A DNA stretch of 64,000 nt, from the NCBI RefSeq assembly GCF_056746865.1, contig NZ_JBWKMP010000005.1; one strand, written 5' to 3'. Origin of the DNA: a plasmid. Below are positions 60,001 to 63,000 of the stretch, in pieces. The stretch's first letter is position 1. The number at the start of each line of letters is the position of its first letter. Made by a program: the position numbers.

Positions 60001-63000
60001 TTTCTTTAGCTACAATAGCTGCAAGAGAAATTCCTTCATTTGCGTTTCGCATAGAATTTTCCTCATACTATTCCTGTGACACTTAACACCATCAATAAAA
60101 TATGTAATGCAGTAATTTTTTTTAGCGTTTTTTTATAGACTTCAATAAAATCCTTATCCAGAAGTCTGATAATAAAAATACATAGTGCATTCATCGCTGC
60201 TCCTGTAAGCGGAATTAACAACGAAAGATGCATGATTTATTCCTTGTTTTCACTCTTGTCTTCGATGGTCATTACTTTAAGAGTTATTCCTTGCATGTCT
60301 GTAACAATAACTCTTGTTCCCGCAGGGTAGTTTTCATTGTGTAACGTCTCAACAGGCCAGAATGTATCACCAATAAGTAATTGCCCCTTGCCGTTCACAA
60401 TATCGTCACTGAGAGTAAATTCTTTTCCTTTAAAACGTGAATGCCCTGTGTTCACCAGGAGAGTATCTAATTTCTTATGTTTTTTGTCATAGAGGAACTT
60501 AATTATCGACGCCAGTATGCTGATTGATGCAAAGAAGCATATATTGGCTTCTTGTGATATCGGAAGAAAAAAGCCCACAATGGCGCTTGATAATGCACCA
60601 AGACTGATTAAGAGTAACCATCCTGTTCCGGTTATAATTTCAAGTGCAATACACAGAAGAAACAGTGTAAACCATAACATGGCTAATCTCCATGATAAAA
60701 GGGAGAAATTGAATAAAGAAGATGAAGGTAGTTATAAACGCCAAATGCATAAATTAGCAGAAAGAAGCCAAAGAATATGCCATTAAAACTCCATATTAAC
60801 AGGGGCAGCAGAGCCATCGCTATCATCACCCCTCCGAAGTTCAGCCATAATGGAAATATTGATGCGATGTGGTTTAGTATTTTTTCTCCTTTGTTCTCAT
60901 CTTTTGTAATAAAAAGAAGAAAGCTCCATGCCCCCATAGGGATTATATGTAAAATAAGAAGGATGAACCCATAAGTTTTCATTTAAATGATTTGCTCATT
61001 CGTGAATATGAATATGAGGACGGTGATTAAAACAATATTGTCACCGTCCGCTATCTGTTTTAAGACAAATATTGTTGAGCCTGTTTCATATCAACTTTGT
61101 GAGTATCCTGTGATACGTTTTTTAGCAGTTCACTGATACCTGCAACCGAACTCACCAGGCTACTTGAATCAAGCGGCATCATCACCAGTTTACTGTTTGA
61201 TGCTGTGCCAATTGCCTGGAGTGCTTCAGTGTATTTTTGCGCAATAAAGTAATTAACAGACTGAACGTCACCTTCAGCGATTGCATCCGACACCAGTTTT
61301 GTTGCGCGAGCTTCCGCTTCTGCCTGACGTTCGCGTGCTTCAGACTGAAGAAACGCTGATTGCCGTTCCCCTTCCGCTTTCAGTATTTGAGACTGTTTTT
61401 CTCCTTCCGCCTTCAGAATTTGTGACTGGCGTATACCTTCCGCTTCCAGAATCTGGGCACGCTTAGTACGTTCCGCTTTCATTTGCGCGTTCATCGCCTT
61501 AGTCAGTTCTTCTGGTGGTTTAACATCCCGAATTTCAATACGTGTGACCTTAATTCCCCACGGATCAGTTGCATAATCGACAACCGTTAACAGCTTAGAA
61601 TTGATGCTGTCACGTTGAGAAAGCATATCGTCGAGATTCATTCCACCAACGACAGTTCGGATATTGGTCATGACAAGATTTGAAATAGCTGATGCAAGAT
61701 TATCGACTTCATAAGCTGCCTTCGCTGCATCAATGACCTGGATAAAACAAACAGCATCGATAGTTACGTTTGCATTGTCTTTCGAAATAACTTCCTGTTT
61801 AGGAATATCCAGGACGGTTTCCATCATGTTGATCCGTTGACCTATGCGGTCCATAAACGGGATCAGGAAGTGAAGACCGGGGGAAAGCGTATGGGTATAT
61901 TTACCAAAGCGTTCCACTGTCCAGGCATTACCTTGCGGCACGATTTTGACGGCAGATTTAACGAATATCAGCGCGACTAAAATTAATAAGAGTAACGGAA
62001 TAGATGTAACTATTGGCGTAATTATAGCGTCAATCATGATTAATCCTCTCCCCATTCATCACAATATGCTTCAACCGGAGTTTTTCCTGCTTCATAATCA
62101 CCACGCCATGCTTCCGCATCGGCGGCATTTCCACCGCGTAACTCTGCGTAATCCATTAATAGCTCGTGCCATTCTTCAAATGTTACGGTTTGTTTAGTGG
62201 AACCAAAATCAGCCATATGTATTTCCTGCATTTTGTGGAGGTATCTCTTTGCAAATGAAATCTGAAATATGAACATCAACAGAAAAACACTTTCCTGCTT
62301 CTTTTTCTTTTGAGAAGTTTTTTCTGCATTCTTCAGCGGTCATAGGGAAGTCGCTGTAATGAGTCCATTTCACGGGGCCACCACCTGGTTTTTTGATGGT
62401 TGCGTTTATTTGGTACTTAGGCATTCAAAAATACCTCCACTCGATCACCTGTCTTTCTTGAACACATCCAGCGGCGCAGTTCTGTAAAACTATCCTGGAT
62501 CTCACAACGGGTACTTTTCATTGTGACAGTTGGTATATTGTCGTAGCTGGCATATGCAATCTCTTTTTTTGGGGTGCGCAATATGCCTTTGTCAATATCA
62601 AGAATCCTGAACGCACTAATTCTTCTTTTGTGCTCGTTAAATAGTGTTCGTTTAGTTGCTGTTATCTGCTTCTGTGCTTCCTGGTAAATGTAGGTAAGCA
62701 CATCATAAGATTGTTGCTGTGTAATAAGGAAATTACGGCTAACATCCGTTGTTGTGAGCGTTTTATTATTTCTTAATCCCCAATAAGCAACGATGATATA
62801 GAGTGGATATCCTTTCAAATCTGCCACACATTCAGGAATGACAGGATTAATTTTTAACTTACGCGCCATATTTTCTCCCGGTTGTTTGTCTGAAATAGAA
62901 ACATCCCCGGAATACAGCGTCATAAGCTAATTATGAAAAGTTGCAGCCACTCACTACAGGCTCTTTATCTGATTGTTCATCATCATGCATAGCTAAACCC

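Follow-up and report, generated by a model that had tools for sequence, protein, structure and literature searches.

A plasmid-borne QmcA-YbbJ-type SPFH-NfeD gene pair and its polymorphic slot in the IncI2 backbone

The QmcA-YbbJ complex of Escherichia coli, in which an SPFH protein is paired with a short NfeD protein, has been solved as a 26+26 cage (PDB 8z5g; Tan et al. 2024, Structure 32:1603, as cited in PMC12478178 and PMC13086221). QmcA binds FtsH, and a deficiency of FtsH is suppressed by QmcA and YbbJ in multicopy (Chiba 2006, as cited in PMC8656257). In Firmicutes, the SPFH protein FloA also has an NfeD protein as its operon partner (FloA-NfeD, YqfA-YqeZ), and the Staphylococcus aureus pair, for which a clamp-shaped oligomer rather than a closed 26-mer cage has been reported, is reported to keep unfolded membrane proteins stable, independently of ATP, in stress and infection (Ukleja et al. 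2024; PMC11222466). HflK/HflC, the partner of FtsH, belongs to the same superfamily and likewise forms cages, but is a periplasm-facing hetero-oligomer without an NfeD partner. Archaea possess the SPFH-NfeD operon PH1511-PH1510 (STOPP), in which PH1510 is a long NfeD protease, and in the Pyrococcus stomatin-NfeD operon the gene order is reversed. A literature search found no discussion of the role of the plasmid SPFH-NfeD pair that is described here.

The stretch of DNA analysed (the window; 64,000 nt) was typed as IncI2, MOBP and MPF_T, which bears out the plasmid location given in an earlier note made from the sequence alone, and it carries mcr-1.1, so that the replicon is an mcr-1.1 IncI2 plasmid. 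The SPFH, short hydrophobic and NfeD-like reading frames described in that note are all present and all lie on the minus strand, as does every feature given with coordinates below. The genes belong to a block with the order yheC-yheB-orf58-ydhA-slot ORF-yhcA-orf56-yhbB, where ydhA and yhcA are the SPFH and NfeD genes in R721/TP114 naming, and VirB-type T4SS genes follow directly downstream. The same locus is present in R721 and TP114, with the synteny yheC, yheB, ydhA (cd08826), accessory ORF, yhcA (cl00686), ORF, yhbB, yhaB, yhaA, virB6 and virB5; R721 differs in that the middle ORF is absent, leaving a gap of 61 bp. The scaffold pair is already annotated in RefSeq and is not itself a new annotation.

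The SPFH/Band-7 protein is a QmcA paralogue, most likely of 325 aa (61060-62037). The length of 331 aa given in the earlier note holds for the longest ORF (61060-62055) but not for the likely protein, because the ATG at 62055 falls within the GAGAGG Shine-Dalgarno sequence that sits 7 nt upstream of the ATG at 62037, and because relatives are annotated at 325 aa; RefSeq places the start at an ATA codon at 62013, giving 317 aa. The SPFH assignment itself was upheld by a match to Pfam Band_7 (PF01145; E=6.3e-40, 137.5 bits against a cut-off of 23.6) over profile positions 1-174 of 176. Among PDB entries, QmcA (8z5g_A) was matched at E=3e-146, stomatins at about 1e-32, including the archaeal SPFH domain 3bk6 at E=1.5e-34, and HflK at 1e-12, and K-12 QmcA exhibits 78% identity over 291 aa, gapless through the anchor, SPFH domain and coiled coil. 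The protein falls well short of the NCBIfam cut-offs for HflK (82 bits against 159) and FloT (36 bits against 700), FloA-NfeD belonging to another, distant SPFH subfamily. Judged by these matches, the protein is of the QmcA/paraslipin type and not HflK/C, flotillin or YqiK, and the gene is labelled 'paraslipin' in one record and qmcA in another. Its architecture comprises an N-terminal anchor, the SPFH domain and a Glu/Ala-rich coiled coil, with a single N-terminal hydrophobic segment and none elsewhere in Kyte-Doolittle plots of 19-residue windows; compared with QmcA, it is longer by about 10 residues at the N-terminus and 18 at the C-terminus. The GC content of the gene is 0.43-0.46 compared with 0.35-0.38, for which the Glu/Ala-rich coiled coil and strong constraint are a more likely explanation than foreign origin.

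The NfeD assignment, which had been named beforehand as the point on which the earlier note could fail, also stands. The product of yhcA (147 aa; 60237..60680) is a short NfeD protein and YbbJ paralogue that matches Pfam NfeD (PF01957) over residues 84-136 at E=1.1e-8 and 35.6 bits, above the cut-off of 29.1, whereas no NCBIfam model was matched. Residues 2-139 align with residues 12-150 of YbbJ in PDB 8z5g (8z5g_B) at E=1.1e-15, that is, over the full length, and identity to K-12 YbbJ is 30%. As in YbbJ, three TM segments, with the hydrophobic segments lying within residues 1-65, precede a C-terminal OB-fold domain, to which the OB-fold domain of PH1510 (3wwv) gave a weak match (E=0.11). A Pfam search of the protein returned no other domain and no ClpP-type protease domain; as a short form lacking this domain, and in contrast to PH1510, the plasmid NfeD is predicted to be unable to cleave its partner.

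The arrangement of the genes agrees only in part with the classic operon described in the earlier note. SPFH and NfeD do share a strand and follow each other in that order, as in E. coli, but they are 380 nt apart, with a hairpin and an additional polymorphic cistron in between, whereas K-12 qmcA and ybbJ overlap by 4 nt. Chromosomal comparator loci in which a downstream NfeD gene was found have SPFH-to-NfeD gaps of -41 to 154 nt and no middle gene, and the gap in IncI2 plasmids without the middle ORF is 61-72 nt. The plasmid pair further differs from that of E. coli in lying inside a conjugation-gene block, together with a CaiF/GrlA regulator, a DUF1187 protein, a 56-aa ORF and yhbB. The block opens with yheC (62417..62923), which encodes the CaiF/GrlA-family transcriptional regulator (Pfam PF07180, E=5e-10; also annotated in RefSeq) and overlaps yheB by 8 nt; deletion of its homologue in pHNSHP45 had little effect on growth or fitness. 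The DUF1187 gene yheB (62209..62424; Pfam PF06688, E=4e-41; phrog_5753) is followed by an acidic 58-aa ORF (62040..62216; phrog_519, E=7e-21), a RefSeq hypothetical protein that is 96.6% conserved in the L009 lineage and whose stop codon lies 2 nt before the SPFH start.

Downstream of the pair, the 56-aa ORF (60063..60233; TP114-090) starts 3 nt past the NfeD stop and encodes two TM segments. It is 98% identical in DNA and 96.5% in protein between IncI2 lineages and 80% identical in L009, is absent from the L010 lineage, and has no family match in Pfam, NCBIfam or PHROGs. The last gene of the block, yhbB (59357..60052; RefSeq 'yhbB protein'), encodes a mosaic membrane protein in which the hydrophobic middle varies and both termini are conserved: the pXH989 version is 52% identical in the C-terminal part only, the R721 type is 93% identical with an 11-aa tandem duplication, and in L010 the protein has shrunk to 51 aa. 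At the gene junctions of the block, reading frames overlap or lie 2-10 nt apart, a Shine-Dalgarno sequence is present at every one, and on this basis translational coupling from yheC to yhbB is proposed as a putative feature. A promoter and terminator scan returned 11 promoter-like sites where chance alone would give 22, and an Rfam scan of 56-64 kb returned no match.

The extra cistron, ORF2 (60683..60982; TP114-088; RefSeq WP_024181945, 84 aa), is called here as a 99-aa protein with three TM segments predicted from Kyte-Doolittle hydropathy; the NfeD Shine-Dalgarno sequence, GGAG, sits in its last codons, and the NfeD ATG lies 2 nt past its stop. It exists as two intact 99-codon alleles, present in 48 and 381 plasmids, which are 72% identical in nucleotides and 55% in amino acids (dS 0.60, dN/dS 0.51). 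In simulations only 3-6% of neutral descendants remained open, and the hydropathy profiles of the alleles correlate at 0.885. About 15% of IncI2 plasmids, the prototype R721 among them, lack ORF2, and in a distant lineage an unrelated ORF takes its place. In pBK15692, an 18-kb KPC-3 transposon region occupies the slot between SPFH and ORF2-NfeD; this plasmid was considered as a natural NfeD deletion, wrongly, as ORF2 and NfeD are both still present beside the transposon. The junction between SPFH and NfeD thus tolerates and repeatedly gains foreign DNA. Searches of Pfam, NCBIfam, PADLOC and PHROGs and a word-indexed search found no homologue of ORF2, an exhaustive profile search of 1.84 billion representative proteins found no relatives, and the sole match outside IncI2 variants (P0030) was to a short stretch of a 1,025-aa protein whose domain hits are incoherent. 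An origin by duplication of the NfeD/YbbJ transmembrane region was ruled out by the absence of similarity, and an AlphaFold model (pTM 0.33, with one implausible 64-residue helix) was unusable. ORF2 is an orphan in a polymorphic slot, a description that goes beyond existing annotation.

Deep divergence of small membrane proteins such as ORF2 and yhbB amid 98%-identical genes is typical of specificity and conflict genes, and EexN, a T4SS exclusion lipoprotein, is encoded nearby. The module, or the slot ORF and yhbB within it, could on this account be an exclusion, immunity or anti-phage determinant diversified by conflict, but this is hardly probable at all: PADLOC models matched none of the eight block proteins at E<=0.01, the dN/dS of ORF2 is about 0.5 and not above 1, one ORF2 allele is paired with differing EexN and VirB6 alleles, and the absence of ORF2 from R721 and the other plasmids without it also speaks against such a role. 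A hairpin (GGACGGTGA-N14-TCACCGTCC; 61018..61049) lies 10 nt past the SPFH stop codon and is kept in every IncI2 variant, whether or not ORF2 is present. The 101-nt region folds at -24.2 kcal/mol (z=-4.0), with none of 200 shuffles as stable. The hairpin lacks a U-tract, is not a canonical terminator and was not called by the terminator scan; it may act as an mRNA stabiliser or attenuator.

Functional information is available from the high-density transposon mutagenesis of TP114 (Neil et al. 2020, Commun Biol 3:523, Supplementary Data 1), which scored genes for maintenance, in vitro, in situ only, and in vitro plus in situ, and whose genes were mapped to the window by gene order, R721-style names and domain identifiers. 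The stomatin-like gene ydhA scored - / - / ++ / ++, being needed for mouse-gut conjugation in every replicate and dispensable for maintenance and for conjugation on agar (Neil et al. 2020); the score stands in a supplementary table, was assigned by a threshold and has no clean-deletion validation, and depletion from gut transconjugant pools would follow from reduced fitness as well as from reduced transfer. The paper leaves the ydhA gut result without comment. The NfeD gene yhcA scored - / - / + / - (Neil et al. 2020), and a '+' in only one condition is weaker than would be expected of an obligate partner. Because the genes downstream of ydhA score more weakly than ydhA itself, its phenotype is not simple polarity. 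Upstream, yheC scored '+' for in situ conjugation only, and yheB showed a pattern identical to that of the SPFH gene (- / - / ++ / ++), which could be a polar effect on the latter. The result, obtained on a sister plasmid, suggests that the scaffold gene has a part in spreading the plasmid in the mouse gut and none on agar.

The same screen bears on the proposal, also made in the earlier note, that the pair organises the secretion machinery. A membrane microdomain for assembling or operating the VirB-type T4SS would suit the position of the genes directly upstream of yhaB-yhaA-virB6-virB5 on the same strand; T4SS proteins of Agrobacterium co-fractionate with QmcA/NfeD homologues in detergent-resistant membranes, and the Helicobacter pylori SPFH protein HP0248 influences CagA delivery. 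However, insertions in ydhA, the slot ORF, yhcA, TP114-090 and yhbB left agar conjugation of TP114 unimpaired, whereas yhaB, virB6, virB5 and other T4SS genes, which are essential there, scored ++. Single, double and triple SPFH mutants of Agrobacterium also retained T4SS localisation and function. A T4SS microdomain is therefore largely refuted for agar mating and is improbable overall. The other role suggested in that note, stress protection, here understood as conditional support, agrees with the gut-specific phenotype of TP114, a fit that does not amount to proof.

The locus was found in about 510 IncI2 plasmids and in 298 of 5,426 complete E. coli genomes, and the organism counts of plasmid tblastn matches are explained nearly entirely by IncI2 records. 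Divergent IncI2-like lineages keep the pair at 83% (SPFH) and 63% (NfeD) identity, both genes are placed in the 'Core' class in the TP114 table, and dN/dS is 0.14 for SPFH and 0.075 for NfeD. The SPFH-NfeD pair is thus core IncI2 backbone under purifying selection. Recent capture from a host chromosome was ruled out, as E. coli qmcA and the plasmid gene share 72% DNA identity, ybbJ gives no DNA match, and sampled chromosomal pairs are at most 78% (SPFH) and 35% (NfeD) identical in protein. A mismatched or hybrid pair, considered for the asymmetry between 78% and 30% identity to the K-12 proteins, was likewise ruled out, since chromosomal orthologues behave alike: between Pasteurellaceae and E. 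coli, QmcA is 78-82% and YbbJ 32-40% identical, the NfeD partner diverging faster there as well. On sequence grounds the plasmid pair is best described as a separate old lineage of QmcA-YbbJ paralogues. The E. coli host already has a chromosomal qmcA-ybbJ pair.

A neutral or nearly neutral passenger, the relic of an old chromosomal qmcA-ybbJ capture without a plasmid-specific role, would account for occasional disrupted copies (an IS1 insertion, truncated NfeD proteins) and for the missing in vitro phenotype in TP114, and would be in keeping with the presence of a chromosomal pair in the host. Such a passenger is very improbable given the strong purifying selection (dN/dS 0.08-0.14), the retention of the pair across so many plasmids and the divergent lineages, and the in situ phenotype of TP114 in every replicate; the protein ceilings given above also show that the capture was not recent.

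The function favoured here, held with modest confidence to be the probable one, is a conditional, cytoplasm-facing SPFH/NfeD cage that supports the envelope machinery of the plasmid under gut conditions. By analogy with QmcA, the plasmid SPFH protein would assemble into a cage of roughly 26 subunits on the cytoplasmic face of the inner membrane, as predicted from the gapless 78% identity and the positive-inside rule: Lys residues come after the SPFH anchor and KKHKK comes after the third NfeD TM segment, so that both soluble domains are predicted to be cytoplasmic. The orientation of QmcA reportedly agrees with cytoplasmic soluble domains. The short NfeD protein would cross the membrane patch inside the cage with its TM helices while its OB-fold domain binds the SPFH ring, and the cage may stabilise or quality-control plasmid-encoded envelope proteins, or buffer the membrane stress that they cause. 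Donors or new transconjugants would thereby stay competent in the gut, while the cage would be needless for replication, maintenance and agar mating; the middle ORF would be a lineage-specific, exchangeable small membrane protein riding in the slot, which the core function could do without. Assembly, orientation and quality control are all proposed by inference. The conditional phenotype put forward here resembles the stabilising role of S. aureus FloA-NfeD. Against this function speak the chromosomal pair of the host, which leaves no evident need for a second copy, and the SPFH mutants of Agrobacterium and Pseudomonas aeruginosa, which showed no marked phenotypes.

A more specific possibility, to be entertained only tentatively, is that the cage supports the IncI2 type IV pilus (the PilL-V thin pilus) by scaffolding or quality-controlling its inner-membrane platform, so that its loss would abolish mating-pair stabilisation, which transfer in liquid and in the gut requires and transfer on agar does not. 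The transposon pattern of ydhA (- maintenance, - agar, ++ gut) equals that of pilL, pilN-S, pilU and pilV in TP114, few other genes (kikA, yaiB and yheB) share it, and deletion of pilS left transfer normal on agar and abolished it in broth (Neil et al. 2020). Gram-positive SPFH proteins have in addition been reported to promote the assembly of membrane machines. A general gut-stress defect, however, would give an identical pattern, the locus adjoins T4SS genes and not pil genes, and the plasmid matches come almost wholly from IncI2 records. Other pilus-bearing I-complex plasmids, such as IncI1 R64, are not known to carry an SPFH gene, which also counts against a pilus-specific role. Doubtful still, and bolder, is the proposal that the cage is a compartment dedicated to assembling and quality-controlling the conjugative envelope machinery, with the thin type IV pilus as its most plausible object, and that it decides the gut spread of mcr-1 plasmids; the slot ORF and mosaic yhbB would then encode exchangeable, lineage-specific client or adaptor membrane proteins loaded into it. 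If true, this would give a QmcA-type SPFH complex its first defined physiological client system.

The locus is ordinary in kind, a plasmid copy of a QmcA-YbbJ-type pair, and what is new beyond annotation is the polymorphism of the ORF2 slot and the undiscussed gut phenotype of ydhA in TP114. The colistin-resistance gene mcr-1 travels mainly on IncI2 plasmids, and of the determinants that let these spread in the gut only the type IV pilus is known. Should the TP114 result hold, the SPFH gene would be among the very few non-pilus genes needed for spread in the gut and not on agar. A plasmid paralogue that is dispensable in vitro and has an in vivo phenotype would be a handy genetic handle on the role of QmcA-YbbJ-type cages.

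The three genes lie on the minus strand of the window in the order read earlier from the sequence: an SPFH/Band_7 gene (61060-62055 as the longest ORF, 331 aa), a middle ORF, here ORF2 (60683-60982, 99 aa), and an NfeD gene (60237-60680, 147 aa). The domain assignments of the earlier note hold above the Pfam cut-offs, both for the Band_7/SPFH domain of the first protein (E=6.3e-40, 137.5 bits against a cut-off of 23.6) and for the NfeD C-terminal domain of the third (E=1.1e-8, 35.6 bits against 29.1), and ORF2 matches no Pfam family. NCBIfam yields sub-threshold similarity to HflK/HflC/FloT for the SPFH protein and zero matches for the NfeD protein. 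RefSeq labels at the locus read 'SPFH domain-containing protein' and 'NfeD family protein', and some RefSeq records carry ORF2 as an 84-aa hypothetical protein. The previously proposed 331 aa is correct for the longest ORF but probably not for the product. Three starts are in use: ATA 62013 (RefSeq, 317 aa), ATG 62037 (one submitter, 325 aa) and ATG 62055 (331 aa). Given that ATG 62055 falls inside GAGAGG, the Shine-Dalgarno sequence preceding ATG 62037, and that 325 aa is called by one independent annotation and by one divergent relative, the protein is most likely 325 aa long. Since a proper Shine-Dalgarno sequence is present only at 62037, the RefSeq ATA start looks like an artefact of fitting the length of chromosomal QmcA.

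A PDB search matched the SPFH protein to E. coli QmcA (E=3e-146) and the NfeD protein, over its full length, to YbbJ (E=1e-15) of cryo-EM structure 8z5g, described in other papers as 26 QmcA–YbbJ heterodimers that form a cage projecting into the cytoplasm. The SPFH protein shares 78% identity with K-12 QmcA over 291 gap-free residues, its coiled coil being likewise gapless, and the NfeD protein shares 30% with K-12 YbbJ. To compare both genes more widely, 80 chromosomal qmcA loci were sampled across Gammaproteobacteria. QmcA evolves slowly and YbbJ fast everywhere in this set, and Pasteurellaceae exhibit 78-82% (QmcA) and 32-40% (YbbJ) identity with E. coli; an asymmetry special to the plasmid pair was therefore rejected. 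The closest chromosomal QmcA in the sample is that of K-12, with none above 78%, and no sampled YbbJ exceeds 35% identity with the plasmid NfeD protein; in DNA comparisons, E. coli qmcA reaches 72% identity and ybbJ gives no match. Recent capture from a host chromosome is excluded by these values, and the sequence comparisons place the plasmid pair in an old, separate lineage. On the chromosome, qmcA and ybbJ share a 4-nt overlap, whereas the plasmid genes are separated by a hairpin and ORF2; in chromosomal comparators with a downstream NfeD gene, the gap is -41 to 154 nt and the middle gene is absent. With 152 aa and no protease domain, YbbJ is a short-form NfeD, so that its label as a 'long NfeD protein' in the Discussion of PMC13086221 (2026) is a small literature error.

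Matches to the region occur in 519 plasmid records, of which almost all are conjugative IncI2 plasmids (MOBP, MPF_T) of Escherichia, Salmonella, Shigella and Klebsiella, and the locus is present in 298 of 5,426 complete E. coli genomes. By protein identity, approximately 515 plasmid records carry an SPFH relative at 95% or above, with a single record each at 90-95% and 80-90%. Another 31 at 60-80% were counted as a group, in which at least one DNA match is a 4.9-Mb chromosome deposited as a plasmid entry, and 448 below 60% belong to other SPFH families, the best among the matches listed lying near 41%. QmcA-type SPFH proteins are thus essentially confined to IncI2 among plasmids. Both genes are under purifying selection (dN/dS 0.14 for SPFH and 0.075 for NfeD). 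Positions 1-25000 are 100% identical to the mcr-1.1 IncI2 plasmid NZ_AP018355.1, whose features along the match include MCR-1.1; this identifies the window as an mcr-1 IncI2 plasmid. A 541-aa ORF (19829-21454, plus strand) lies within the matching stretch, and the two TnpB genes of that record probably correspond to two 402-aa ORFs of the window (1725-2933 and 6439-7647).

The genes belong to a tightly packed, single-strand block running from a CaiF/GrlA-type regulator (yheC, 62417-62923) to yhbB (59357-60052), in which all junctions but one overlap or span 2-10 nt. The regulator overlaps the DUF1187 gene by 8 nt, which in turn overlaps a 58-aa ORF by 8 nt; the latter stops 2 nt before the SPFH ATG. 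ORF2 stops 2 nt before the NfeD ATG, with the GGAG of NfeD in its final codons, and the NfeD gene stops 3 nt before a 56-aa two-TM ORF that ends 10 nt before yhbB. The only larger gap, the 77 nt that follow the SPFH stop, contains a stable hairpin (61018-61049, z=-4.0) that is retained in every IncI2 variant, including those without ORF2. The hairpin was not taken as a terminator because it has no U-tract, and is possibly an attenuator or stabiliser. Downstream of the block lie yhaB, yhaA, VirB6 (TrbL domain, E=4e-37) and VirB5. The DUF1187 gene yheB (62209-62424, minus strand) and the acidic 58-aa ORF (62040-62216, minus strand) match phrog_5753 and phrog_519, respectively, both phage families of unknown function. 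Upstream of the regulator, approximately 640 nt (62924-63566, minus strand) free of annotated genes contain an unannotated 98-aa ORF (63118-63414) and the best sigma-70-like match of the region (TTGACA-18-CACAAT, 63428-63399); this stretch may act as promoter or leader for the block as a whole. Rfam and promoter scans were dead ends. GC content falls sharply from ~0.48 to ~0.36 at ~55250-55750 and stays low through the T4SS-proximal block to ~61000.

ORF2 occupies a polymorphic slot. Alleles were compared between the window and pXH989-MCR, representative of the commonest IncI2 type. The SPFH and NfeD genes are 98% identical, whereas the identity of ORF2 is 72% in DNA and 55% in protein, both alleles being intact 99-codon frames. 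ORF2 exhibits a dS of 0.60, against 0.06-0.08 in the flanking genes, and a dN/dS of 0.51; the divergence reflects exchange of old alleles by recombination and not merely fast evolution. In neutral simulations with the same substitution spectrum, the frame stays open in only 3-6% of descendants; the other five frames hold 3-9 stops each, no indels separate the alleles, and their hydropathy profiles correlate at 0.885. Protein-coding status of ORF2 is supported, though not proven, by its sequence. The window's allele occurs in 48 plasmids and the other in 381, and ORF2 is absent from ~75 of 506 plasmids with the locus, including the prototype R721, pEC3II_1 and a Klebsiella plasmid, via two different deletion junctions; frameshifted and fused forms also occur. 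In a more distant IncI2-like lineage (SPFH 83% and NfeD 63% identical to those of the window), the slot holds an unrelated 120-aa ORF with one TM segment, again right after a hairpin. In pBK15692 (NC_022520.1, 4934-23070), a Tn1331/Tn4401 region of ~18 kb carrying blaKPC-3, TEM-1, OXA-9, aadA1 and aac(6')-Ib sits exactly between the SPFH stop and ORF2 (window ~60983-61059), splitting SPFH from NfeD in a plasmid still typed as conjugative, and IS1 is present at the locus in another plasmid. A profile search run exhaustively against 1.84 billion representative proteins recovered only IncI2 variants, remote-homology searches for ORF2 gave no result, and its AlphaFold model is of low confidence (pTM 0.33); ORF2 is an orphan.

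Variability extends to the neighbouring genes. In an IncI2 contig from Logan SRR28381744 (3282-5623), SPFH is 99.4% identical to that of the window, NfeD 68%, the 56-aa ORF 80% and yhbB 56%, with the recombination breakpoint inside the NfeD gene; evidently, the SPFH protein is compatible with widely differing NfeD partners. The yhbB gene is a mosaic, conserved at both ends and variable in its hydrophobic central part; the window copy differs from the R721 type by an 11-residue tandem duplication in a TM segment, and in a distant lineage the gene is cut down to 51 aa. These alignments indicate regional variability, in which the SPFH gene is constant and its small membrane-protein neighbours are swapped.

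No literature linking IncI2 with SPFH, NfeD, QmcA or stomatin was found in the searchable library. High-density transposon mutagenesis data for the IncI2 plasmid TP114 are given in Supplementary Data 1 of Neil et al. 2020 (PMC7508951), with scores for maintenance / agar conjugation / mouse-gut conjugation / agar followed by gut, and the TP114 genes were mapped to the window by identical gene order, R721-style names and domain identifiers. The SPFH gene ydhA (cd08826, stomatin-like) and yheB (DUF1187) score - / - / ++ / ++ (Core); yhcA (NfeD superfamily) and yheC (regulator) score - / - / + / - (Core), as does the unknown ORF between ydhA and yhcA (Accessory); and yhaB, virB6 and virB5 score - / ++ / ++ / ++ (Core). 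The ydhA phenotype, gut-specific in this sister plasmid, is more than simple polarity because genes downstream of ydhA score weaker, whereas that of yheB could be a polar effect on ydhA. Deletion of the CaiF/GrlA regulator of pHNSHP45 changed host growth or fitness little. The agar data contradict the earlier suggestion that the pair organises the secretion machinery as a T4SS scaffold; Agrobacterium QmcA/NfeD homologues occur in the same detergent-resistant membranes as the T4SS, but T4SS function is normal in SPFH triple mutants (PMC8656257). That the pair is a mere passenger is contradicted by purifying selection and by the screen.

The reading with the best support is a cage of the QmcA–YbbJ type at the cytoplasmic face of the inner membrane. 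The plasmid proteins would assemble likewise, with a cytoplasmic orientation suggested, under the positive-inside rule, by Lys after the SPFH anchor and KKHKK after the third NfeD TM segment. Under gut conditions, the cage may stabilise or quality-control plasmid envelope proteins, or buffer their cost. As cited in PMC8656257, QmcA binds FtsH, and QmcA and YbbJ in multicopy suppress FtsH deficiency (Chiba 2006); in S. aureus, under stress and during infection, FloA–NfeD keeps unfolded membrane proteins stable (PMC11222466), and SPFH deletions in P. aeruginosa give no marked phenotypes. In a narrower form of this reading, the cage would serve the thin pilus; this has no direct support yet fits the phenotype pattern equally well: elsewhere in TP114, - / - / ++ / ++ is scored by the type IV pilus genes pilL, pilN-S, pilU and pilV, by yaiB and, nearly, by kikA (PMC7508951). 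The authors treat the pilus only, and ydhA, yheB, yhcA and 'stomatin' are absent from the main text and from the follow-up paper. An exclusion or defence role finds no support, given zero PADLOC matches among the block proteins, an ORF2 dN/dS below 1, and ORF2 alleles that do not follow those of EexN or VirB6.

The kind of gene pair, its RefSeq annotation and the transposon screening of TP114 were already known. What is new is the placement of the pair as an old, IncI2-restricted QmcA–YbbJ lineage, the identification of the SPFH–NfeD junction as a recombination and insertion slot with an orphan membrane protein, and the link to an undiscussed in vivo phenotype. Although unsurprising in kind, the pair offers a useful lead to plasmid biologists and to work on the function of QmcA-type cages.
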